Source: Actinomycetota bacterium
Lineage (GTDB): Bacteria > Actinomycetota > Actinomycetes > S36-B12 > UBA5976
Assembly: GCA_009698575.1 (NCBI GenBank)
Contig: WLPX01000004.1
Span: 16,160-80,159, forward strand
DNA length: 64,000 nucleotides
Direction of reading: 5' to 3'
In this document: piece by piece, positions 23,956-37,494 of the stretch
Position numbering within the stretch: the stretch's first letter is position 1
Layout of the letters: the number at the start of each line of letters is the position of its first letter
The notes under the pieces: generated by a model
Seen by the model: only the letters and a program-made list of their open reading frames with translations
Told to the model about the DNA's origin: nothing
Database searches by the model: none
Position numbers and translations under genes: made by a program

Positions 23956-24873
23956 CTAATTTTTAACCACTAAAACACCTAAGCGACCTAAGCGCAATCC
24001 ACCGACTTTTGCATTAGGTGTAGCCTCTGTTTTGAGAACAGTCGTTCCTAACTTTTCTAAAAGCATTGAAATCGACTTTAGATTGTAATAATTCAGGTGT
24101 TCCGACTGCTTAACTACCCCACGTTTCGGGATGCTGAATCCAAATTGGCGAGCAATTCCAGAAGCAAAGTCATGTGCAATGAATTTTCGTTTGCTGCTAG
24201 TTGATATTCGACTAAGCATTTCTGCATACTTCTCAGATCCATGATGACTCTTTATAGATGGGCGATCCATTGGAACTTCGACGTATAAGTAGGATCCAGA
24301 ATTCAAATGGGAAATCAAATTAGTGAAAAAATCTATCGGATCATTTACGTGTTCCGCGATGTGGGCTGCCACAATTAGATCAATTTTATCCTTCACAACA
24401 CCAAGGGAAGGTTCGCGAGAAACATTTTTTCGCAATGTCTTATTGGATACATCAATAACGATTCTTTCTTGGATATCTATCTCTGGAAAAAATTGTCCCT
24501 CATCTCCACCAAAGTCGACGACGGTTTTGCATTCCTGCAGCCCTGCAGAAATCAATATATTGGTCATGAATGAAACACGCTCATCTACATGATCAGACTC
24601 ACCAGAATAAGCATCATTTACTGTTCGTCGATACCACGGTTCCCAAGAATTCCGCACTGCATAATAGTTATCGCTGCGATACCCGGAATACATCGCTGCC
24701 ATTTCATTGTCTGAAAATCTTTTTTCAAAGAAACTAAATTCACAATTGTCGCAATTCAACAAAGTTGTGAACTGTGGATCCTTTTGGCCGGATATTTCGG
24801 TGATCCATGGCGCCACTACTGCATTAGCAATTTTTGTAACGCTTGCACCGCATGCGAGGCATTGATTTGCCAT
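23956..24873 (-). CDS. Class I SAM-dependent methyltransferase with N-terminal CxxC/CxxC motif
   Basis: CLAC...CDNC, VVDFGGDEG, HIAEHVNDP, LYVEVP, EHLNYY; ATG at 24873 immediately after the rfbG stop. Confidence 0.75.
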   Translation of the reverse strand: MANQCLACGASVTKIANAVVAPWITEISGQKDPQFTTLLNCDNCEFSFFEKRFSDNEMAAMYSGYRSDNYYAVRNSWEPWYRRTVNDAYSGESDHVDERVSFMTNILISAGLQECKTVVDFGGDEGQFFPEIDIQERIVIDVSNKTLRKNVSREPSLGVVKDKIDLIVAAHIAEHVNDPIDFFTNLISHLNSGSYLYVEVPMDRPSIKSHHGSEKYAEMLSRISTSSKRKFIAHDFASGIARQFGFSIPKRGVVKQSEHLNYYNLKSISMLLEKLGTTVLKTEATPNAKVGGLRLGRLGVLVVKN

Positions 24874-24874
24874 G

Positions 24875-25900
24875 TTAACCACCTTTAATTTCCAAGAAGG
24901 CACTCAATTGTTTTTGAGAAATCCCTAAGGCATGCTCACCAGATAAGAATTGCTTATGCCATCTAACTGTCCACTCAATTGAATCTCTAAACTCAAGCTT
25001 GTTTTTCCATAGCAAATTACTTTTTGCTCTTGTTGCATCCAGTGCTAACAAGCCAGCCTCATGTGGATTTTCCTGCACGTCATGTGACCATACAGATTTA
25101 CTACCCCATAAATCGGCCACAATTGTGGCAACTTCTCCCACGGAAACGAAGCTGTCTTGATCAGGCCCAATGTTAAACGATTCAGGCATTTTCTTGGACA
25201 TCAATAAACGATCACAAATCATTAGGTACCCATTTAGGCAATCAAGTACGTGTTGCCAAGGACGTACGGCTTGCGGGTAGCGCAGTACAGGAGGCATCCC
25301 ATTTACGTACGAATTGATCAGATCCGGTAACAGCCGATCTGGGCTAACGTCGCCACCACCGATTACATTTCCTGCTCTCGCGATTGCCGTGGGTGCGCCT
25401 GGAAATGACGTTATCCATGAATGAGTAGCAATGTCTGCCATTGCTTTTGAGGCACTGTATGGATCATCTCCGCCTAGAGGGTCGTCTTCAACGTAACCAG
25501 CAATCTGATTTACATTTCGGTAAACCTTGTCTGTAGTTATAACCAGGTGAGCCTTAACAGCAGGCGTAGCGGAAACTGATTCCAGAATATTTAGAGTCCC
25601 CATTGCATTGGTCTCAAACGTTGTGCGCGGGTCTTTATATGATTCGCGTACAAGTGGTTGGGCAGCCATGTGGATAACTACATCTGGTGAAGTCGACGTA
25701 ATTGCCTCCTTAACGGCGGAAAAGTCCCGGATATCAACACGCATATCATTGGTAATTAAATCTTTTACACCCGCAACTTCATAAAGGCTGCCAGTGATTG
25801 GGTCAAGTGATATTCCCGAGACGGAATGGCCTTGAGATTGTAGCCAAATTGAAAGCCACGCTCCCTTAAATCCTGTATGACCGGTTATCAAGTAGTGCAT
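24875..25900 (-). CDS. rfbG: CDP-glucose 4,6-dehydratase
   Basis: ITGHTGFKGAWL, HMAAQPLVRESY, TTDKVY, DPYSASK, ARAGNVIGGGD, RPWQHVLD, HEAGLLALD. Confidence 0.95.
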   Translation of the reverse strand: MHYLITGHTGFKGAWLSIWLQSQGHSVSGISLDPITGSLYEVAGVKDLITNDMRVDIRDFSAVKEAITSTSPDVVIHMAAQPLVRESYKDPRTTFETNAMGTLNILESVSATPAVKAHLVITTDKVYRNVNQIAGYVEDDPLGGDDPYSASKAMADIATHSWITSFPGAPTAIARAGNVIGGGDVSPDRLLPDLINSYVNGMPPVLRYPQAVRPWQHVLDCLNGYLMICDRLLMSKKMPESFNIGPDQDSFVSVGEVATIVADLWGSKSVWSHDVQENPHEAGLLALDATRAKSNLLWKNKLEFRDSIEWTVRWHKQFLSGEHALGISQKQLSAFLEIKGG

Positions 25901-25910
25901 TTACAAATGC

Positions 25911-27230
25911 CTATGCGTGCTTATTTACAAACTCGGTGATCGAGTCAGAAATGTAATCCAGCATCGGTTCTGTTAGACCCGGATAAACACCGACCCAGAA
26001 TGTTCGGCGCATAACTATATCGGTGTTCGTTAAGTCACCAACAACGCGAAAATCAACATTTCTATATGCCGGTTGCTTCATAATGTTTCCAGCAAACATT
26101 AATCTCGTACCAATTTTTCGAGAATCCAAGAATCGCAACAATTCCTCTCTATTCACAGGATGTTTTGGATCAAGGGTGATTGGAAAACCAAACCATGATG
26201 GATCAGATTTTGGAGTGGCTTTTGGCATGATCAAGCCTTGAACGCCCTTTAGCTTCTTGGAGAGATACTTGAAATTCTTTTTACGAGCATCGCTGAAGGA
26301 ATCTAGTTTGGTGAGCTGTGAAAGACCTAGTGCCGCCTGCATGTCAGTAGCTTTTAGGTTGTAGCCGATGTGGCTGTAAATATACTTGTGGTCGTAACCT
26401 TCTGGCAGATCACCAAGCGTCCAACCAAAACGCTTATTACACGTGTCATCGTGACCAGTTTCGCAGTAGCAATCACGTCCCCAATCTCGGAAAGATTCAA
26501 CTTGTTTCTTGACTAACGGGGACTTAACAAATACCGCTCCACCCTCACCTGTTGTTATATGATGTGCTGGATAAAAACTAGCTGTTGCAGTGTCACCGAA
26601 GCTTCCAGTTTTTTGACCATCATATGTAGATCCAAGTGCGTCGCAAGAGTCTTCAATCAACCAAAGATTGTGTTCATCACACAACTCTTGCACGGTGTCC
26701 AAATCAAACGGGTTGCCTAAGGTGTGTGCCATCATGATCGCGCGAGTTTTTGGACCTACAGCTTCTCGCAATCGATCCGATTTTGCGTCATAGGTTTCTA
26801 ATTCAACGTCAACAACTACGGGCCTTAATCCATTTTGAATTATCGGATTTACTGTGGTTGGAAATCCCATGGCTACCGTCAAGACTTCGTCACCAGGCTT
26901 TAGTGCCTTTTTCCCGAGTTTTGGACTTGTCAACCCTGAAAGCGCAACAAGATTTGCACTTGAGCCACTGTTTACAAAAAGGGCACTTCGTGAACCTACG
27001 TATTTTGCAAGTTTTCTTTCAAACTCGGCAGTGAACCTACCTGCAGTAAGCCAGCCATCTAGGGATGAATCAACCAGTGCTACTAGATCGTCCGGATCGA
27101 GCACCTTCCCAGATACTGGAACGACTGACTCTCCAGGCTTGAATTCTGATTTTTCAAGGTTTTTTTCAGCAAATGCTCTTGCGGCATCCAGCGCGACTTT
27201 TCTTAATGTTTCCAACTCGCTTTTTGCCAC
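25911..27230 (-). CDS. rfbH: CDP-4-keto-6-deoxy-D-glucose 3-dehydrase (E1, PMP/[2Fe-2S])
   Basis: [32 protein letters not shown] (His in place of the PLP Lys), WGRDCYC..DDTC cluster motif, YDHKY. Confidence 0.95.
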
Positions 27231-27353: not shown

Positions 27354-28127
27354 GTGAAGGCTGTTTTACTTGCAGGCGGTCTTGGTACGCGTTTGCGCGA
27401 AGAAACCGAATTCAAGCCAAAACCTATGGTTGAAGTTGGTGGAAGACCAATAATTTGGCACATTATGAAGAACATAGCTATGCACAATATCGGAGAGTTT
27501 GTTGTTGCTACTGGATATAAGAGTGAAGTTATTAAGGACTATTTTCTAGACTATGAAGCAAGAAATAACGATTTCACGGTTTCACTCGGTGAAAAGCATG
27601 CAATTGAATTCCATGATGCCCACGATGAAGGCGACTGGAGAGTAACTCTCGCATTTACCGGTGAGTTAACTATGACCGGCGGACGCGTTAAGCGAATTGA
27701 AAAATACCTTGGTGGAGAAAGATTCCTCTGCACTTATGGAGACGGCCTAGCAGACGTAGATATTTCTGCCTTACTCGATTTCCATAAATCCCACGGAAAA
27801 CTAGCCACCGTAACTACCGTTCAACCTTCAAGTCGATTTGGAATCATGGATGTGAACTCAGGGGGTGAAGTTAAGAGCTTCAAAGAAAAGCCAAAGTTAG
27901 ACGGTTGGATAAACATTGGCTTCTTCATCTTTGAGCCTGAAGTATTAAGTTACCTAGACACAGAATGCGTGCTTGAACAGGAACCACTTGCAAAACTAGC
28001 CAAGGATGGCCAACTTATGGCATTTCGTCATGAGGGTTTCTGGCAACCAATGGATACGTATCGTGAATCAACGATGTTGAATGAGATGTGGAATGACGGA
28101 AGTGCTCCTTGGAAGACATGGAGTTAA
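27354..28127 (+). CDS. rfbF: Glucose-1-phosphate cytidylyltransferase
   Basis: LAGGLGTRLREET..KPKPMVEVG, TMTGGR, TYGDG, FWQPMDTYRE, APWKTW. Confidence 0.95.
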   Translation: MKAVLLAGGLGTRLREETEFKPKPMVEVGGRPIIWHIMKNIAMHNIGEFVVATGYKSEVIKDYFLDYEARNNDFTVSLGEKHAIEFHDAHDEGDWRVTLAFTGELTMTGGRVKRIEKYLGGERFLCTYGDGLADVDISALLDFHKSHGKLATVTTVQPSSRFGIMDVNSGGEVKSFKEKPKLDGWINIGFFIFEPEVLSYLDTECVLEQEPLAKLAKDGQLMAFRHEGFWQPMDTYRESTMLNEMWNDGSAPWKTWS

Positions 28128-28133
28128 AAAGTA

Positions 28134-29066
28134 ATGTCAAAAAAACTAATCAGCGTGATCATTCCTGCCTACAACGAAACAGAATGCATTGAAGAGCTTC
28201 ATTCGCGTCTTGCGAATATTTTTGATGTAGAAACTGACTACGACTTTGAAGCGGTGATCGTGGAAAATGGCTCGAGCGATGACACCTACGAGAAACTACT
28301 TGTAATTAACCAAAAGGATTCTAGATTCAAAATCCTAAAGCTGGCTAGAAACTTTCGAATGGATGGCGGCCTAACTGCTGGACTAAGTGTTATCGATAGC
28401 GATGCCTGTATTTTGATGACTGCTGACCTACAAGATCCCCCAGAACAAATTCCAGCCCTAATCAGGAAATGGGAAGAGGGATTTGAAAACATATACGGCA
28501 TTGTCACTGAGCGCCAGGGCACTGGGCCAATTAGAACATTCAATTCGAAGGCTTTTTATTGGGTCGCGGGGAAATTGACCGATAATCGAATTCCGAAGAA
28601 CGCAAGTGACTTTCGACTTCTTGACCGCAAAGTGTATGAAGCGGTTCGAGACATGGACGAGCGAAATCGTTTTGTACGCGGACTTGTTGCTTGGGTTGGA
28701 TTCACATCTGTTGGCGTGGAGATCGCTCGTCCGCCAAGATTCGCCGGCGAATCTAAGGCCTATTCATTCCAAGTTATTGACTTAGCATTCAAGGGCATTT
28801 TTGCGCATTCATACAAACCGTTAAGAATCATCACTGTGACAGGAATATTGGTCAGTGTGCTTTCGGTAATTGGATTCATCGCATTGGCATCGCGCTGGTT
28901 CTTAGTTGGCGTTCCATTCGGTGGCTATGGAACTCTCACAACAATTGCTCTTTTTTCTTTCGGGCTACTGACCTTTATGTTAGGAATCATTGCTGAATAT
29001 CTTGGCTTGATTTATGAGGAAGTTAAGAAGAGGCCAAACTACGTCGTTGACCGTTGGTTGTCTTAA
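28134..29066 (+). CDS. GT2 polyprenyl-phosphate glycosyltransferase (GtrB/ArnC-like)
   Basis: IPAYNE, NGSSDDT, RNF, TADLQDPPE, DFRLLDR, RFVRGLVAWVGF, two C-terminal TM helices, EEVKKRPNY. Confidence 0.88.
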   Translation: MSKKLISVIIPAYNETECIEELHSRLANIFDVETDYDFEAVIVENGSSDDTYEKLLVINQKDSRFKILKLARNFRMDGGLTAGLSVIDSDACILMTADLQDPPEQIPALIRKWEEGFENIYGIVTERQGTGPIRTFNSKAFYWVAGKLTDNRIPKNASDFRLLDRKVYEAVRDMDERNRFVRGLVAWVGFTSVGVEIARPPRFAGESKAYSFQVIDLAFKGIFAHSYKPLRIITVTGILVSVLSVIGFIALASRWFLVGVPFGGYGTLTTIALFSFGLLTFMLGIIAEYLGLIYEEVKKRPNYVVDRWLS

Positions 29067-29746
29067 TGAATCGGGTAGCGGTTTTTGGTAGTTCCGGCGC
29101 ATTGGGATCGACGATATCAAATGACTTTGAAAACTTGGGGTTTGATTCCGTTCGATTAACTAGTAGTTCTTCAAAAGAGAATCTTGTTTCTACTTTGGAT
29201 GAGAATTGGGTCGAAGTTCTTACTAAGCCCGGAAAACTCGATGCGGCCGTTTGGGCTCAAGGATTTAATCAGTCTGACAACATAAGTGAGTTTTCGATAG
29301 ATGTCTTTAATAAGCACCTTGATGCGAATGTTTCTTACATTCTTGACACTGTGCACAAACTTATTGCAGCCGATGCCTTTACAAACAGAGCCCGCATCGT
29401 AATTTTGAGTTCAATATGGCAAGAGTCATCGAAAGCGAACAAGCTTAGCTACATGGTTTCTAAGTCTGCTCTCAAAGGGCTAGTAACCAGTCTCTGCCTT
29501 GACTTGGGACATAAAGGCATAAGTGTCAATGCGGTATTGCCTGGTGTCACTGATTCGCCAATGACCCATCGCAACTTATCTTCAGAGCAAATTGCTCACG
29601 TGGTTGACGAGACACCCTTGAATATCCTGCCTCGAATCGAAGAAGTCTCAAAGACGGTTACGTGGTTAGCGTCTACAGACTCAAGCGGTATCAATGGACA
29701 ATTCATCACAGTTGATAACGGTTGGACTCGATACCGAAATGTTTGA
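29066..29746 (+). CDS. Classical SDR oxidoreductase
   Basis: GSSGALG, LSSIW, YMVSK, NAVLPG, INGQFITVDNG; TAATG overlap with the upstream gene. Confidence 0.88.
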   Translation: MNRVAVFGSSGALGSTISNDFENLGFDSVRLTSSSSKENLVSTLDENWVEVLTKPGKLDAAVWAQGFNQSDNISEFSIDVFNKHLDANVSYILDTVHKLIAADAFTNRARIVILSSIWQESSKANKLSYMVSKSALKGLVTSLCLDLGHKGISVNAVLPGVTDSPMTHRNLSSEQIAHVVDETPLNILPRIEEVSKTVTWLASTDSSGINGQFITVDNGWTRYRNV

Positions 29747-30797
29747 AATTCCGGTATCGAGCAAGTTGGGTTCGTACACAATAAATATAAATAGCAGCAT
29801 CGATCCGATTACTGTACCTGGCATCGCGATCGTGGATTCGAATACTAGATCGCACTTAGTTGCTCAAGACTCAGCAAAGCTCATCATCATTGAAGCGTCG
29901 GAGGAAGTTAAAACCCTGCCTTCGTGCGAATCCGTAATTATCAAACTTAATGATTTGGGGCTGAAGCGAAGCGATTCGATCAGCGCAATCGGTGGTGGCA
30001 CAACTCAAGATCTGGCAACACTGACTGCCAGCCTTTACATGCGCGGTGTCTCATGGACCTACTATCCAACAACACTGATGTCTATGACTGACTCATGCAT
30101 CGGCGGCAAATCAGCAATCAATGCTGGCGATCGAAAGAATCTGATTGGAAACTTCTACCCACCTAATGAAATCCAAATCAACACGAGATTCCTGGAAACA
30201 AACTCAAACATAGATATTGTTAATGGGTTGTCTGAGGCAGTAAAGATTTGCTTTGCTCGAGGTGCGAACGCGTTTGAAAAGTACATCGCCTTGCCCTCAT
30301 CTCTAAAGCCAGGCAACGATAAGAACACAGCCGAATTGATTAATCACACGTTGAGCACGAAAAAGTGGTTTGTCGAAATTGATGAATTTGATTTAAAGGA
30401 ACGACAACTACTTAACTTTGGGCATTCTTTTGCTCATGCACTCGAGTCAGCGACTAATTATTCAATTCCGCATGGAACAGCCGTAGGAATCGGCATGATT
30501 GCGGCACTACGTCATCCAGAATCAAGCAGTTCTGGCAGGTCCAAGGTGTTGATTGACTATTCATTAAAGATGCTCGACCTAACTAAGGAATCTATATCAG
30601 ACGGCATGAAGCATTTTGATGACACAAAATTCGTTACTGCTCTTGATCGAGATAAAAAAAATTCCCAAGAATACTTACGTTTAGTTTTACTCAACAGAAA
30701 TGATGAGTTGGAACTAATCTCGTTAGAGCGAAATGATTACCAACTTCAAATAGCACTTTCATCCTTAAAAGAAGCAATTAGTGAGGTCCTGCTGTGA
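29739..30797 (+). CDS. 3-dehydroquinate synthase-like / sugar-phosphate cyclase family protein
   Basis: IGGGTTQD, PTTLMSMTDSCIGGK, KNLIGNFYPP, SEAVK, LNFGHSFAHALE, HGTAV metal ligands. Confidence 0.85.
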   Translation: MFEIPVSSKLGSYTININSSIDPITVPGIAIVDSNTRSHLVAQDSAKLIIIEASEEVKTLPSCESVIIKLNDLGLKRSDSISAIGGGTTQDLATLTASLYMRGVSWTYYPTTLMSMTDSCIGGKSAINAGDRKNLIGNFYPPNEIQINTRFLETNSNIDIVNGLSEAVKICFARGANAFEKYIALPSSLKPGNDKNTAELINHTLSTKKWFVEIDEFDLKERQLLNFGHSFAHALESATNYSIPHGTAVGIGMIAALRHPESSSSGRSKVLIDYSLKMLDLTKESISDGMKHFDDTKFVTALDRDKKNSQEYLRLVLLNRNDELELISLERNDYQLQIALSSLKEAISEVLL

Positions 30798-32560
30798 AAT
30801 ATTCAGATCAATTAGTTCAATGGCTTAAAAGCGAAGGTTTCACTCACTGCTTTTTTGTAGCAGGTGGAAACATTATGCACTTGCTCAACTCCGTTCGTAA
30901 TGAAATGACATGCATACCCTTTGTTAATGAAGTTGGTGCAGCAATCGCAGTTGAGTCCTTTAATGAGACTTCAAATTCTAAGAATGAAAAAGCGTTCGTG
31001 CTTGTCACTGCTGGACCTGGATTAACTAATGCAATTACTGGAATATCAGGAGCATGGCTAGAAAGTCGGGAACTCCTTGTAATTGGTGGCCAGGTCAAAA
31101 GTTCAGACCTGAAGGAAAAAGAAATGCGACAACGAGGAATTCAAGAAATTGACGGAGTTGAACTTGTTTCCACAATTACTAAGGATGCAATTCGAATAAC
31201 TAAACCAATTTCACGGGAACTATTCTTGTCCACGGTAAAAAAGGGAAGCACTGGCAGGAAGGGTCCTGTGTTCATTGAAATCTGTCTCGATGCCCAAGCC
31301 AATCCACCTCTGGATGAGGTCTCACCTAATCAAGAAGAGAACTCAACCTCTAAGGCCGCGCAGATCTTGGATGACAAGACCTTGGACTTGATAAAGAACT
31401 CAAAGCGCCCAGTTTTACTCATCGGTGGAGGCGTGGGATTTGATTTTGCCCAGAACCACTCAGAAGACTTTAAAAATCTGGGAATTCCACTCATGACGAC
31501 CTGGAATGGTGCGGATCGAATTTCATCAATTAACCCTCTTTATTTTGGTCGTCCAAACACATGGGGTCAGCGCTCTGCCAACATTCTGATTCAGCAGTCA
31601 GATCTGGTCCTCGCAGTAGGTACCAGACTAGGTCTGCAGCAAACTGGATTTGCCTGGGAAGAATTTGTTCCAAACGGAAAAGTAATACAGATAGACATAG
31701 ATAAAAGCGAACTCGATAAAGGTCACCCAACAATTGAGCATGGAATAAACGTCGATGCAACAGAATTTCTAAAGGCTCTGTTTACAAGCGCAAATGACTT
31801 AGAGCTTGATTTCTCAACTTGGAAAGAATTTTGCAACGAAGTTAAAGGTGCGCTGCCACTTACTGATCCAGAAAACATAACTAGACCTGGATTCGTTGAT
31901 CCATATCTTTTCGGAATGGCAATCTCTGGAGTTGCAAATCCTGATGCCGTTATCGTGCCTTGTAGCAGTGGTAGTTCTTTCACAGTGTTGATGCAAACAC
32001 TCAGCCAATCAGGCTCCCAGCGAATAATCTCCAGCAAAGGTTTGGCAAGCATGGGGTATGGACTCAGTACCGCCATAGGTAGTGCATTCGCAAATCCTGG
32101 GAAACAGATCTTCTTGGTTGAAGGCGATGGCGGATTTGCCCAAAACCTCCAAGAGCTCGGTACCGTTGCAGCAAATAACCTGCCGATCAAAATCTTCATT
32201 TGGGCCAATAATGGCTATGCCTCAATTCGCATGACCCAAAGAAACTATTTTGACGGGGCTTGGGTCGGTTGCGATTCAGAAACAGGGCTTGGACTACCAG
32301 ATTTGGAATTGCTAGCAAAGACCTACGGGATTTCCTACCTTCGCATGACAGAAAACATTTTTAACGAACAGGGCATTGTCAATATATTGGCTGCGCCTGG
32401 GCCTGCAATCATAGAAGTTCCAATTGATCCAGAGCAAACATTTTATCCAAAAATCACTTCATCGGTTCAGCCTGACGGGTCTATGAAATCTAATCCATTA
32501 CACTTAATGAATCCGGAGTTGTCGAAAAAAATCGCAAAGCAAGTCTTTAAATACCTCTAG
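30794..32560 (+). CDS. Thiamine diphosphate-dependent enzyme (acetolactate synthase-like, YerE-type)
   Basis: NEVGAAIA (catalytic Glu), VTAGPGLTN, GRKGPVFIEI, LASMGYGL, EGDGG...NNGYASIR ThDP motif. Confidence 0.9.
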   Translation: MKYSDQLVQWLKSEGFTHCFFVAGGNIMHLLNSVRNEMTCIPFVNEVGAAIAVESFNETSNSKNEKAFVLVTAGPGLTNAITGISGAWLESRELLVIGGQVKSSDLKEKEMRQRGIQEIDGVELVSTITKDAIRITKPISRELFLSTVKKGSTGRKGPVFIEICLDAQANPPLDEVSPNQEENSTSKAAQILDDKTLDLIKNSKRPVLLIGGGVGFDFAQNHSEDFKNLGIPLMTTWNGADRISSINPLYFGRPNTWGQRSANILIQQSDLVLAVGTRLGLQQTGFAWEEFVPNGKVIQIDIDKSELDKGHPTIEHGINVDATEFLKALFTSANDLELDFSTWKEFCNEVKGALPLTDPENITRPGFVDPYLFGMAISGVANPDAVIVPCSSGSSFTVLMQTLSQSGSQRIISSKGLASMGYGLSTAIGSAFANPGKQIFLVEGDGGFAQNLQELGTVAANNLPIKIFIWANNGYASIRMTQRNYFDGAWVGCDSETGLGLPDLELLAKTYGISYLRMTENIFNEQGIVNILAAPGPAIIEVPIDPEQTFYPKITSSVQPDGSMKSNPLHLMNPELSKKIAKQVFKYL

Positions 32561-32575
32561 AAAACGGAGTACGAC

Positions 32576-33373
32576 ATGAATAAAACCGAACGCAAGATGT
32601 CAGAAATTCTTAAGCGCGGAAAAAATGAATTTGGTGTCGTTAGCATCAAGGCAGAATTTGAGGCTGAAGGTACTCGCGTAGATGAACTATTGCGTTTGGT
32701 TGATATTGCAAGATCAGCTGATTTGCCTATGACGGTAAAAATTGGTGGCTGTGAAGCTGTTCGAGATTTGCTTGAATCGAAGCAGATCGGCGTTAGATAT
32801 GTAGTAGCACCAATGGTTGAGACTCCGTACGCGCTGAGCAAATACATTCTTGCCAAGAACATGGTTTTCAATGAGGACGAATTAGAAGACAGCGACTTTT
32901 TATTTAATTTGGAAACAATAACTGGCTTTAACAACTTGGATGAACTAGTCACAGTTGCTCGCTCAGAAGGCGGAGTTCAAGGTGTGGTCTTTGGGCGCGT
33001 AGATTTCGCTGGTTCACTGGGTGAAAACCGAGACACAATCAATGAAGCAAAGATTACTGAATACGTTGCCAAGGCATCTGCTGCTGCCAAGGACGCATCG
33101 CTTGATTTCGTCATGGGTGGCGCGATTTCAAGTGACTCATTGCATGTGATTAAAGAAATCGCCGGAATTCACCTAACTAGGTTTGAAACCCGCAAAGTTG
33201 TTTTTAGTGGTGAAGCCGGAACTATCAAGAATATCGAACAAGGTCTGGTTAATGCCGTACACTTTGAATTACTGTGGCTTTTGAACAAGCGGGATTACTA
33301 CGGTCGCATCACCCAAGAAGATGCAAAGAGAATCGATATGCTTGAAGCTCGTTGGAATGTCCTCAGTAGCTGA
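32576..33373 (+). CDS. HpcH/HpaI aldolase / citrate lyase beta-like protein
   Basis: [40 protein letters not shown]. Confidence 0.75.
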
Positions 33374-34337
33374 AAACTCGAGACTTTTAGAGAATTTTCT
33401 TAAGCAGGCTCTGCCCAGCAACGTTCGCATCTTAGTTAATGGTGCGAACGGCTGGTTAGGTAAGAATATTTCCGAATCACTTTGGAATATGTTCGGTGGG
33501 GAATTTAGTTCACAAGTTTTGCTAACCGGCTCTAAGAATGGAATTCTGCAGTTGCAGAATGGTTCCGAGTTAGAGATCAATCGGTGGACCGAAGAACTTA
33601 TAGAGGAATTCAAACCAACCCATGTGATTCAGTTAGCGTTTAAGACACGTGACCATGTGGGTGAAATCTCCAATGACGAGTACGTCTCTCTAAACGAAGA
33701 AATCATTAACCGCGCCCTATGGACAATTTCGCTACCAAGCACGCAAGGATTTCTTCACACTTCCAGTGGAGCAGCACTTGGTGAAACTGCTTTTGACAAA
33801 CATATTGACCCATACGGATATCTCAAGAAATTCGAAGAATCCAGTTACTCAAGTGCTTGCAAGGATAACGGCAAACGTTATCTAGGTTTGCGGGTTTGGT
33901 CTACTACGGGTCGATACATCAAGTCAGGTGGCCTCTTTGCGATTGAAAGTCTAATCAGTCAGGCAATGTCTTCAGAAAACTTAAGCATTAATAGTCAAGG
34001 AGAAGTTTGGCGCAGCTATGCAGACGCCAATGAGATTCTGCTTGCTGGACTTATCGCACTTTTCACTGGTGAAACGGGTTTGTACAATTCCGGAGGAACT
34101 GACACAGAAATCGGTGAGCTGGCTGATCTTGTCTCCTCTTTGACACCCAGTCGCACGCCTGCAATAAATCGGATCAAAGATAGCGCAGCTACCGCAAGTA
34201 TTTATACCTCTATCGAACCCTCTATCGAACAGGTTCTGGCTTTACATGACTTGCGATATTCGGATTTACGGGCTCAGGTAATTAATACAATGCAATACTT
34301 GACATGGCTACATAGTCAATCAAATCCTCAGGACTAA
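33357..34337 (+). CDS. NAD-dependent epimerase/dehydratase/reductase (extended SDR)
   Basis: [20 protein letters not shown]; start at ATG 33357 is uncertain (track gives 33321). Confidence 0.75.
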
Positions 34338-35958: not shown

Positions 35959-37494
35959 TTAATTCCCGATGACTTGGATTTTGCGAAACTGCCCAATTAG
36001 AACTATCGATGAGGCCGCATAAAGCACACAAAACAGGATAGCTACTTCCCAATAATCAGGGACCCACTTGAGGTCCCACCATAACTTATTCTTAAAAAGT
36101 GGAAATCCGATTCCATACCTGCTGTAACTCCATAAAAGTGTGCTGAAGTGCATCAGCACTGTAACTCCAACTAAATTTCTAAAGTCAAGAACTGTGACAC
36201 GAATATTCTTCTTTAAGGTTACTGAATAGATTGCTCCAGCTAAAAAAGGTAGCGATACAAAGAGCGCTCCAGTGTACCTAGACTGAAATCCTGCGCCTCC
36301 AAGCAATCCGAGAGTCCGCGTTGAAAAGATAGGAATTAAGGCATAGGTGATAAACATAAAACCTACAATTGATATCTTGCTACATATATTTAAAATGCGC
36401 GCAAAGAAGTAAATCATTCCAAAGTAGATCGCAGCCCATGTAATAAGTACCCATAGCGGAGGCGTGTGATCGCGCCAACCAAGCCAGCCAAAATGTTCTA
36501 TGGTATACGAAGCGAAATTTGAAAGAATAGATCTAGCGGATGCTCCTAGAGATAGAACCTCTGATTCTGTACCTCTAAGTTCCAAAACATCGCGATACTT
36601 TGAATTTGAAATGTATCCGATCGCACCCGAAATCGAAATCACACTTACTAGCAAAGTGCTCTCAAGCTTTGAAATAAACTTACCTATAACTCTGGGCATT
36701 TTCGTTTCAACTAGAGACGAGCCAATAAGTGCAAACAATGGCATTCCAATAATCAAAACTACATAAAAATAAGACAGTGGCTTTGCGACACTTAGGCTTA
36801 GTGAAATAAAGAAAATCGCGATTAGCCTAATTTTCCATAAGTTGTTTCGTTTATCAAAAGAATCTCTATCAATGTGTAAGCCCGCCAAAAGACCCGCAAG
36901 TGAAAGTCCACATGCCATTTCAAATCCATTTGGATTTACGGCAGTTGTGAAAGTAGTAAACATGGGGGTGACCGCAACAATTGTGGCAATTGCTAGAAGT
37001 GCATAATTTTTTTTCGGCCAAAGTAAAACCATCAATCCAAACATGATTAGCGTCAAAAATGTAGAAACTAGTCTCATTCCATACATTGCATGCAAGCCAC
37101 TCATGAATCGCGAAGGCTGGCCCACGAAATAGAAATATGGCTCAGGATATCCGCTAATCATTGTATCCATTGAAGTCACAGTCGGTTTGTTAGAGGTCGA
37201 AAACCATCCCGATCTTCGTTGACAGTCGGCAGTTGCTTTCGGATTAAACGCCGTGCATGCAAGTGCAGGCGCATACTGTAGGTACTCTGGGATGCTAGCG
37301 TCTCCAAAGTTTTGCCCACTGGCGATTACATTGGCGTAAATTGCGTAAGCCGGTTCATCGGCAACACCTCCAATTGGAGTAGTGCTTGCCCACATTAAAT
37401 TAACAAAAGCTATAGTAGCGAATAGTGATGCCCGAAATTTTGTCTCATAGTTTTCTCGAAAGTAATCAAAACGACTTGCTTTACTGCTCATCAT
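35959..37494 (-). CDS. DUF2142-like polytopic membrane protein (probable GT-C glycosyltransferase)
   Basis: ADEPAY after the first TM, GYPEPYFY, MRLVS, TPM..AVNPNGFE, FGWLGWRD, QSRY; about 11-12 TM helices. Confidence 0.72.
   Translation of the reverse strand: MMSSKASRFDYFRENYETKFRASLFATIAFVNLMWASTTPIGGVADEPAYAIYANVIASGQNFGDASIPEYLQYAPALACTAFNPKATADCQRRSGWFSTSNKPTVTSMDTMISGYPEPYFYFVGQPSRFMSGLHAMYGMRLVSTFLTLIMFGLMVLLWPKKNYALLAIATIVAVTPMFTTFTTAVNPNGFEMACGLSLAGLLAGLHIDRDSFDKRNNLWKIRLIAIFFISLSLSVAKPLSYFYVVLIIGMPLFALIGSSLVETKMPRVIGKFISKLESTLLVSVISISGAIGYISNSKYRDVLELRGTESEVLSLGASARSILSNFASYTIEHFGWLGWRDHTPPLWVLITWAAIYFGMIYFFARILNICSKISIVGFMFITYALIPIFSTRTLGLLGGAGFQSRYTGALFVSLPFLAGAIYSVTLKKNIRVTVLDFRNLVGVTVLMHFSTLLWSYSRYGIGFPLFKNKLWWDLKWVPDYWEVAILFCVLYAASSIVLIGQFRKIQVIGN

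Follow-up and report, generated by a model that had tools for sequence, protein, structure and literature searches.

The long acyl-branched sugars erwiniose, caryophyllose and gastriose are built in three steps, as set out in the passages of Steitz et al. 2022 that treat them (PMC9306805): an aldolase joins pyruvate and an aldehyde into a 4-hydroxy-2-oxoacid, a YerE-like enzyme dependent on thiamine diphosphate (ThDP) adds this acid, with decarboxylation, onto CDP-4-keto-3,6-dideoxyglucose, and a reductase completes the branch. We describe a new member of this caryophyllose-type pathway class in a 64,000-nucleotide stretch of an Actinomycetota bacterium (contig WLPX01000004.1; the whole stretch is hereafter called the window), where the gene at 29739-30797 on the forward strand encodes a relative of 3-dehydroquinate synthase (DHQS). 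There is, in our estimate, about an even chance that this DHQS-like enzyme and its short-chain dehydrogenase/reductase (SDR) partner take the DHQS reaction halfway, on an aldol product resembling 3-deoxy-D-arabino-heptulosonate 7-phosphate (DAHP), giving the ThDP donor its 7-deoxy (methyl) end. A literature search returned no described role for a DHQS-like gene in lipooligosaccharide (LOS) or branched-sugar clusters, and the passages of PMC9306805 are likewise silent on a role for it or for its SDR neighbour.

In Mycobacterium marinum, MMAR_2331 encodes a protein of the aldolase/citrate-lyase family, MMAR_2332 a ThDP enzyme and MMAR_2333 a glycosyltransferase (GT), and the mutants are without caryophyllose, those in the aldolase and ThDP genes accumulating the LOS intermediate that lacks it (PMC5706390; relevant passages of PMC9306805). 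The same passages draw the caryophyllose donor from pyruvate and an aldehyde ‘28’ – which we take to be 4-deoxytetrose – and do not name the origin of ‘28’. The sugar is described as acyclic (PMC5706390; passages of PMC9306805), and its side chain is a D-altro-1,3,4,5-tetrahydroxyhexyl group, 6'-deoxy and hence methyl-ended (PMC5706390). Since the side chain is 6'-deoxy, the ThDP donor must be 4,5,6-trihydroxy-2-oxoheptanoate, a 3,7-dideoxyheptulosonate. By our own derivation from the published names, that donor corresponds to DAHP minus the C7 phosphate oxygen, epimeric at C4 and with C5 and C6 configured as in D-erythrose.

Among enzymes, the housekeeping DHQS known as AroB (EC 4.2.3.4, TIGR01357) shares with the DHQS-like protein its fold and its NAD, metal, phosphate and carboxylate residues and, probably, the oxidation, phosphate-elimination and reduction steps. 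The DHQS-like protein differs in belonging to a separate clade, in lying outside any aro operon, in being always paired with an SDR and in having a proposed product that is acyclic. Closer to it are the TIGR04425-like proteins, named for the family ‘AroB-related putative sugar phosphate phospholyase (cyclizing)’, which fall on the same side of the tree and are also preceded by an SDR. However, these carry His at the K197 position, where the window protein keeps Lys, and their locus in a Pelagibacteraceae genome – the only one annotated here – has neither ThDP nor HpcH genes. That locus (L013:5137-11862, from a single-cell genome) has an SDR followed by a TIGR04425-like DHQS relative of 354 bits, with a CMP-type cytidylyltransferase (CTP_transf_3), an SIS_2 isomerase, two GFO/IDH/MocA oxidoreductases and methyltransferases as neighbours; here the pair may work in a pathway to a CMP-activated ulosonic acid.

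The sugar-phosphate cyclases that make 2-epi-5-epi-valiolone (EEVS, ValA), desmethyl-4-deoxygadusol (DDGS) and 2-deoxy-scyllo-inosose (DOIS, BtrC) belong to the same superfamily and have the same fold. In phmmer comparisons the window protein scored 94.8-124.6 bits against DHQS, 95.6 against DOIS (inside the lower part of the DHQS range), 85.5 against EEVS and 61.5 against DDGS. It keeps the DHQS-type carboxylate ligands; such ligands differ in sedoheptulose-7-phosphate cyclases. An identity as a sedoheptulose-7-phosphate cyclase or DOIS was rejected, as the protein resembles these enzymes no more than it does DHQS and retains the carboxylate ligands of the latter.

The DHQS-like gene is a stop-free open reading frame (ORF) of 352 amino acids (P0001). 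A longer alternative start exists (ATG at 29694), yet 29739 is the likelier one because 352-aa homologues align with the query over its full length. The gene overlaps the upstream SDR by 8 nt (SDR stop at 29746, DHQS-like ATG at 29739) and the downstream ThDP gene by 4 nt (DHQS-like TGA at 30795-30797, ThDP GTG at 30794). An AlphaFold model built with 25 sequences has a pLDDT (predicted local distance difference test) of 93.2, and the predicted fold matches solved DHQS structures with TM (template modelling) scores of 0.7-0.83.

Motifs for NAD and Zn/Co binding were located at residues 165-169 (SEAVK), 228-233 (GHSFAH) and 245-246 (HG). Conservation was assessed in an alignment of 35 proteins, including 21 cassette DHQS-like proteins, three mycobacterial ones and eight AroBs, onto which we placed Aspergillus nidulans DHQS numbering by motif register and after the 1DQS literature; the residue numbers are presumptive. 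Thirteen mapped positions – R130, D146, K152, N162, E194, K197, K250, R264, N268, H271, H275, H287 and K356 (the last a gap in one truncated row) – are invariant in all 21 cassette proteins, in 3/3 mycobacterial copies and in 8/8 AroBs, as is the GGG/D119 NAD motif (21/21, 3/3 and 8/8). The ligands for NAD, Zn/Co, phosphate and carboxylate are therefore all in place. Only eight differences, all conservative, separate the cassette proteins from AroB, none at a known catalytic position. The invariance of every NAD, metal, phosphate and carboxylate residue argues for a DAHP-like ulosonate phosphate as substrate and for retained phosphate elimination.

This conservation notwithstanding, the gene is, to judge from its scores, tree position and context, a non-housekeeping, non-shikimate paralogue. 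Its product scores 230.7 bits with the aroB equivalog model TIGR01357, under the 305-bit cut-off. The best-scoring NCBIfam model is TIGR04425, at 273.8 bits, again under its cut-off (400 bits); cassette orthologues score 265-281 bits with that model, and relatives from Pelagibacteraceae and Desulfobacterales 354 and 393 bits. The source genome (an assembly of 1.7 Mb, 92% complete) has a second, true aroB at C29:8212-9198 (328.5 bits); aroC (C29:9806-10918) lies some 600 bp away on the same contig, and contig C26 encodes a class II DAHP synthase. Six other cassette-bearing genomes likewise combine an AroB above the cut-off with a cassette copy below it, and in none of the cassette genomes tested does the cassette copy reach the cut-off.

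In a maximum-likelihood tree, the branch dividing eight AroBs from 27 cassette and TIGR04425-like proteins has an SH-aLRT (approximate likelihood-ratio test) support of 100. The AroB sample is narrow: it comes from cassette-bearing genomes, namely Actinobacteria and one alphaproteobacterium; a representative phmmer search yielded cassette and TIGR04425-like relatives alone (187 bits or more), without any AroB that could have enlarged the outgroup. In Mycobacterium G579 (97% complete), a search with the aroB model at E <= 1e-20 found the cassette copy only (254.9 bits) and no AroB above the cut-off; the assembly may have a gap there, or the cassette copy may be the sole aroB-like one.

An earlier note on this stretch, made from the sequence alone, had pointed to the intact NAD and Zn/Co motifs and to the overlaps with both neighbours, and both observations are borne out here. 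It had also reported no aro genes nearby, which holds for the ORFs inspected at 18.7-40.6 kb of the window (pur, sugar and glycosyltransferase genes), the remainder of the 64 kb not having been scanned for aro. Its view of the enzyme as non-shikimate holds: among the grounds that it named for giving up its reading, nesting within AroB and being the only copy in the genome are contradicted by the tree and by the second copy beside aroC.

The genes at and around this part of the window are as follows.

23956-24903, minus strand: SAM-dependent methyltransferase (Pfam Methyltransf_23; a 39%-identical homologue lies beside the Mycobacterium G447 cassette).
24875-25900, minus strand: RfbG, CDP-glucose 4,6-dehydratase (TIGR02622, 389.5 bits, exceeding the cut-off of 278.45).
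25911-27230, minus strand: RfbH, CDP-6-deoxy-4-hexulose 3-dehydrase (E1) (NF011936, 706.3 bits, exceeding the cut-off of 423).
27354-28127, plus strand: RfbF, glucose-1-phosphate cytidylyltransferase (TIGR02623, 342.2 bits, exceeding the cut-off of 300.25).
28134-29066, plus strand: GT2 polyprenyl-phosphate glycosyltransferase, PgfS/ArnC-like (Pfam Glycos_transf_2; under the cut-off with the PgfS model, at 220.7 bits, and with the ArnC-type model, at 129.9 bits).
29054-29746, plus strand: SDR (Pfam adh_short_C2), the constant upstream partner of the DHQS-like gene.
29739-30797, plus strand: DHQS-like enzyme P0001 (Pfam DHQ_synthase 109 bits and DHQS_C 85.6 bits; TIGR04425 273.8 bits; aroB 230.7 bits).
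30794-32560, plus strand: ThDP-dependent carboligase resembling YerE and acetohydroxyacid synthase (AHAS) (three TPP_enzyme domains; below all AHAS cut-offs).
32576-33373, plus strand: aldolase-like protein of the HpcH/HpaI (citrate-lyase) family (Pfam HpcH_HpaI, 31.1 bits).
33321-34337, plus strand: extended SDR (NAD epimerase/dehydratase; Pfam Epimerase, 34.7 bits), a candidate YerF-type side-chain ketoreductase, a role suggested by the passages of PMC9306805.
34347-34739, plus strand: GtrA-family membrane protein (Pfam GtrA_DPMS_TM, 64.1 bits).
35959-37494, minus strand: DUF2142 membrane protein (Pfam DUF2142, 61.2 bits), a candidate extracytoplasmic glycosyltransferase, this role being inferred only.

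RfbF, GT2, SDR, DHQS-like, ThDP and HpcH-like genes thus lie on the plus strand, with RfbH, RfbG and the methyltransferase divergent. The window shares with the caryophyllose locus of M. marinum LOS, as given in the passages of PMC9306805, RfbF/G/H, a YerE-like ThDP carboligase, a protein of the aldolase/citrate-lyase family, a reductase and a GT. All three Rfb proteins score above their equivalog cut-offs, and the carboligase (30794-32560) adjoins the aldolase-like protein (32576-33373). The nearest solved relatives of the carboligase, 8rph (294.7 bits) and 5ahk (216.3 bits), outscore canonical AHAS and are non-AHAS ‘thiamine pyrophosphate-binding’ proteins; for the HpcH-like aldolase, sequence search returned no solved relative. 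A homologue of the extended SDR adjoins most cassettes. Its longest ORF in the window begins 53 nt within the HpcH-like gene (33321-33373), and the real start probably lies further downstream. For the window the acceptor would be an actinobacterial envelope glycan, reached by a GT2/GtrA/DUF2142 route, unlike M. marinum LOS.

The same set of genes is found in three Mycobacterium genomes – the genus being assigned via PPE genes – as RfbG-RfbH divergent from RfbF-GT2-ThDP-HpcH-SDR-DHQS-like. The window order SDR–DHQS-like–ThDP–HpcH thus contrasts with the mycobacterial ThDP–HpcH–SDR–DHQS-like–kinase. Between the window and these loci, identities are 59-62% for RfbG, 75-76% for RfbH, 64-67% for RfbF, 66-67% for GT2, 59% for ThDP and 71-72% for HpcH, but just 25-27% for the SDR and 33-34% for the DHQS-like protein. 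The HpcH-like aldolase of the window is 69-73% identical to its counterparts in five Mycobacterium genomes. The mycobacterial order of GT, ThDP and aldolase genes equals the published order MMAR_2333/2332/2331; by synteny, and if the numbering is contiguous, we infer that MMAR_2330 would encode the SDR and MMAR_2329 the DHQS-like protein.

An FGGY-type kinase gene directly follows the DHQS-like gene in 3/3 mycobacterial loci (the copies are 66-71% identical to each other) and is absent from the window and the other cassette loci. The kinase is a divergent FGGY-family sugar kinase, seen at L026:7270-8535 (Mycobacterium G447) and also at L027/L028 and L029; the match in G687 is split over two frames and may be frameshifted. 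The ThDP gene of G447 (L026:2699-4294) may be truncated: its longest ORF has 531 aa, and the tblastn match ends early relative to the approximately 590 aa in G687 and G579.

A further Mycobacterium cassette (G781, L030:10300-19600) has RfbH, RfbF, GT2, ThDP and HpcH genes without the SDR/DHQS-like pair. In place of the pair stand an epimerase fused to a mobile domain that uses phosphoenolpyruvate (PEP; 876 aa in all), a methyltransferase and a PPDK_N/PEP-utilizer protein, and this cassette may be a variant for a different side chain. Because it exists without both genes of the pair and with other tailoring genes instead, the pair can be regarded as an optional side-chain module.

The pathway that we favour would start from RfbF, RfbG and RfbH – identified above, and with chemistry established for their families – which would yield CDP-4-keto-3,6-dideoxyglucose. 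The HpcH-like aldolase would condense pyruvate with the phosphate of a C4 aldehyde, for which D-erythrose 4-phosphate is the simplest choice, to a 3-deoxy-heptulosonate 7-phosphate, the C4 epimer of DAHP. Held in the unaltered DAHP pocket of the DHQS-like enzyme, this aldol product would be oxidised transiently at C5 by NAD+, lose its C7 phosphate by β-elimination and be reduced again at C5. DHQS chemistry opens with the same three steps, which generate a C6 enol/ketone and a C7 methyl group. The translationally coupled SDR would then reduce the C6 ketone, giving the methyl-ended 3,7-dideoxyheptulosonate (4,5,6-trihydroxy-2-oxoheptanoate). With the ketone reduced rather than attacking C2, the product is exactly the donor required. 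The YerE-like enzyme would decarboxylate this 2-oxoacid and place the C6 unit on C4 of the CDP-ketosugar, the extended SDR would reduce the 1'-ketone, and GT2, GtrA and DUF2142 would transfer the sugar to polyprenyl phosphate, flip the lipid-linked form and add the sugar to a glycan of the envelope. Overall, the DHQS-like/SDR pair would deoxygenate the end of the chain, phosphate being the leaving group.

The SDR motifs GxxGxxG, S119/S120, Y133 and K137 are invariant across 10 orthologues, and the gene lies directly 5' of the DHQS-like gene at every locus examined, in all three deep clades (the cassette family, the mycobacterial copies and the TIGR04425-like proteins). The presence of an intact SDR in this position in three deep clades fits the reduction of a ketone, and the mycobacterial FGGY-type kinase fits a scheme in which phosphate is installed and then eliminated.

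Several points weigh against phosphate elimination with an acyclic outcome. The catalytic positions are, as far as sequence can tell, the same as in real DHQS and give no sign that cyclisation is avoided. The enol-pyranose intermediate of DHQS cyclises spontaneously, so that an acyclic outcome would need protonation of C7 on the enzyme or rapid capture by the SDR. The window cassette is without a kinase, erythrose 4-phosphate as the substrate is a guess, and the order of the steps relative to the aldolase and the ThDP ligation is tentative. Furthermore, synteny is the basis for equating the Mycobacterium loci with that of M. marinum. The mycobacterial DHQS-like protein shares just 33% identity with the window copy and sits on a long branch, and the approximately unbiased (AU) test does not reject its grouping with AroB (p = 0.41). 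Its orthology, and with it the extension of the caryophyllose argument to the window, is therefore tentative, and the mycobacterial copy may be an independent recruitment.

The same elimination might instead occur one step earlier, the DHQS-like enzyme and the SDR turning a tetrose or tetrulose 4-phosphate into 4-deoxytetrose (2,3-dihydroxybutanal), which the HpcH-like aldolase would then join to pyruvate. This order matches the aldolase substrates proposed in the passages of PMC9306805, pyruvate and the aldehyde ‘28’ as we read it, and both the SDR pairing and a mycobacterial kinase that could phosphorylate a small free sugar would suit it. We nonetheless consider it unlikely: K250 and R264, which would be needless for a tetrose phosphate, are invariant, and all other pocket residues are kept too. 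In the A. nidulans DHQS structure these two residues are reported to bind the DAHP carboxylate. The same ligands bear on the possibility of late action, in which the aldolase product would still bear its phosphate during ThDP ligation and the DHQS-like enzyme would act afterwards, stripping the phosphate from the side chain of a branched sugar linked to CDP. Although the necessary 1,3-relationship of hydroxyl and phosphate persists in the side chain, and the gene is co-transcribed with CDP-sugar genes, decarboxylation would leave the conserved carboxylate ligands with nothing to bind, and the closed DHQS pocket of the predicted model seems to offer no obvious room for a CDP-hexose; we give this order little credence. 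Late action is what the earlier note had in mind with a substrate possibly still attached to CDP, whereas a pocket that keeps every ligand for the carboxylate and phosphate of DAHP points to a 3-deoxy-2-ulosonate phosphate in free form.

The earlier note also placed the protein in a new cyclase subfamily acting on an aldolase- or ThDP-derived ketose. The aldolase-derived substrate is supported, most plausibly as a ketose acid, while the cyclase part finds no support. A true cyclase would convert the aldol product into a dehydroquinate-like carbocycle, the ring ketone being reduced by the SDR and the ring ending in a glycan. The complete DHQS catalytic set is kept, the SDR is equally suited to reducing a ring ketone and, with the AU test leaving room for the mycobacterial copy to group with AroB, the non-mycobacterial cassettes could make something else. 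However, cyclisation turns the 2-oxo group into a tertiary alcohol and so would destroy the 2-oxoacid that the adjacent ThDP carboligase needs as its donor. The aldolase (72%) and the ThDP enzyme (59%) are, moreover, near those of a Mycobacterium cassette whose order matches the genes for caryophyllose, an acyclic sugar (PMC5706390). We therefore see only an outside chance of a cyclase, and the earlier note was probably wrong both on this point and on the CDP-bound substrate. More improbable still is a redundant or specialised isozyme of 3-dehydroquinate synthase converting DAHP to 3-dehydroquinate. The identical catalytic residues, the DHQS identity of the nearest solved structures and the lack of another aroB in G579 (97% complete) at E <= 1e-20 would accord with it, but the aroB cut-off is not reached by the protein of any cassette genome tested, and its gene always lies between the SDR and sugar genes, while the true aroB of the source genome stands beside aroC.

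The arrangement RfbF-GT2-SDR-DHQS-like-ThDP-HpcH, with RfbH/RfbG nearby, was found by tblastn at eight further actinobacterial loci and in Brevundimonas, with a partial copy in Pseudolabrys. Carriers include Microbacteriaceae-like metagenome-assembled genomes (MAGs), Aurantimicrobium minutum MWH-Bo1 (locus L006), Propionicimonas, Cellulomonas, a Solirubrobacterales MAG and a contig binned as Gordonia, so that the cassette extends over Actinobacteria, Alphaproteobacteria and a few Mycobacterium genomes. It is rare: the aldolase-like protein occurs in 3/401 sampled Actinomycetota and 5/400 Mycobacterium genomes. The contig binned as Gordonia (L016, from a G. polyisoprenivorans MAG) has a cassette nearest the Microbacteriaceae type (DHQS-like identity 57-61%) and not the Mycobacterium cassette, an affinity that suggests mis-binning or lateral transfer; a homologue search seeded with its DHQS-like protein returned no Mycobacterium among the matches. 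More broadly, over 150 clusters (at 50% identity) of relatives score in phmmer above the level at which the DHQS-like protein matches AroB, and those with a name carry the annotation ‘3-dehydroquinate synthase’. By these similarity scores, the DHQS-like gene represents a branch of the DHQS family in its own right, one that is large and widespread.

There is a slight chance that the non-mycobacterial cassettes perform real cyclisation, leading to a CDP-activated or lipid-linked sugar with a quinate-like carbocycle; if so, the envelope sugar would be carbocyclic and of a new class, and the enzymes would add a new branch to the sugar-phosphate cyclases. If, instead, phosphate elimination for terminal deoxygenation is correct, a DHQS fold with an unaltered active site would be used to remove a terminal oxygen instead of forming a ring – a possible new reaction outcome for a textbook enzyme fold – and would supply the unexplained step of caryophyllose-type pathways, in which the side-chain precursor acquires its methyl end. 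The mycobacterial counterpart lies, by gene order, in an apparent lipooligosaccharide locus that shapes host interaction. For metabolic reconstructions of small-genome bacteria, DHQS relatives in this cassette context should not count as shikimate genes.

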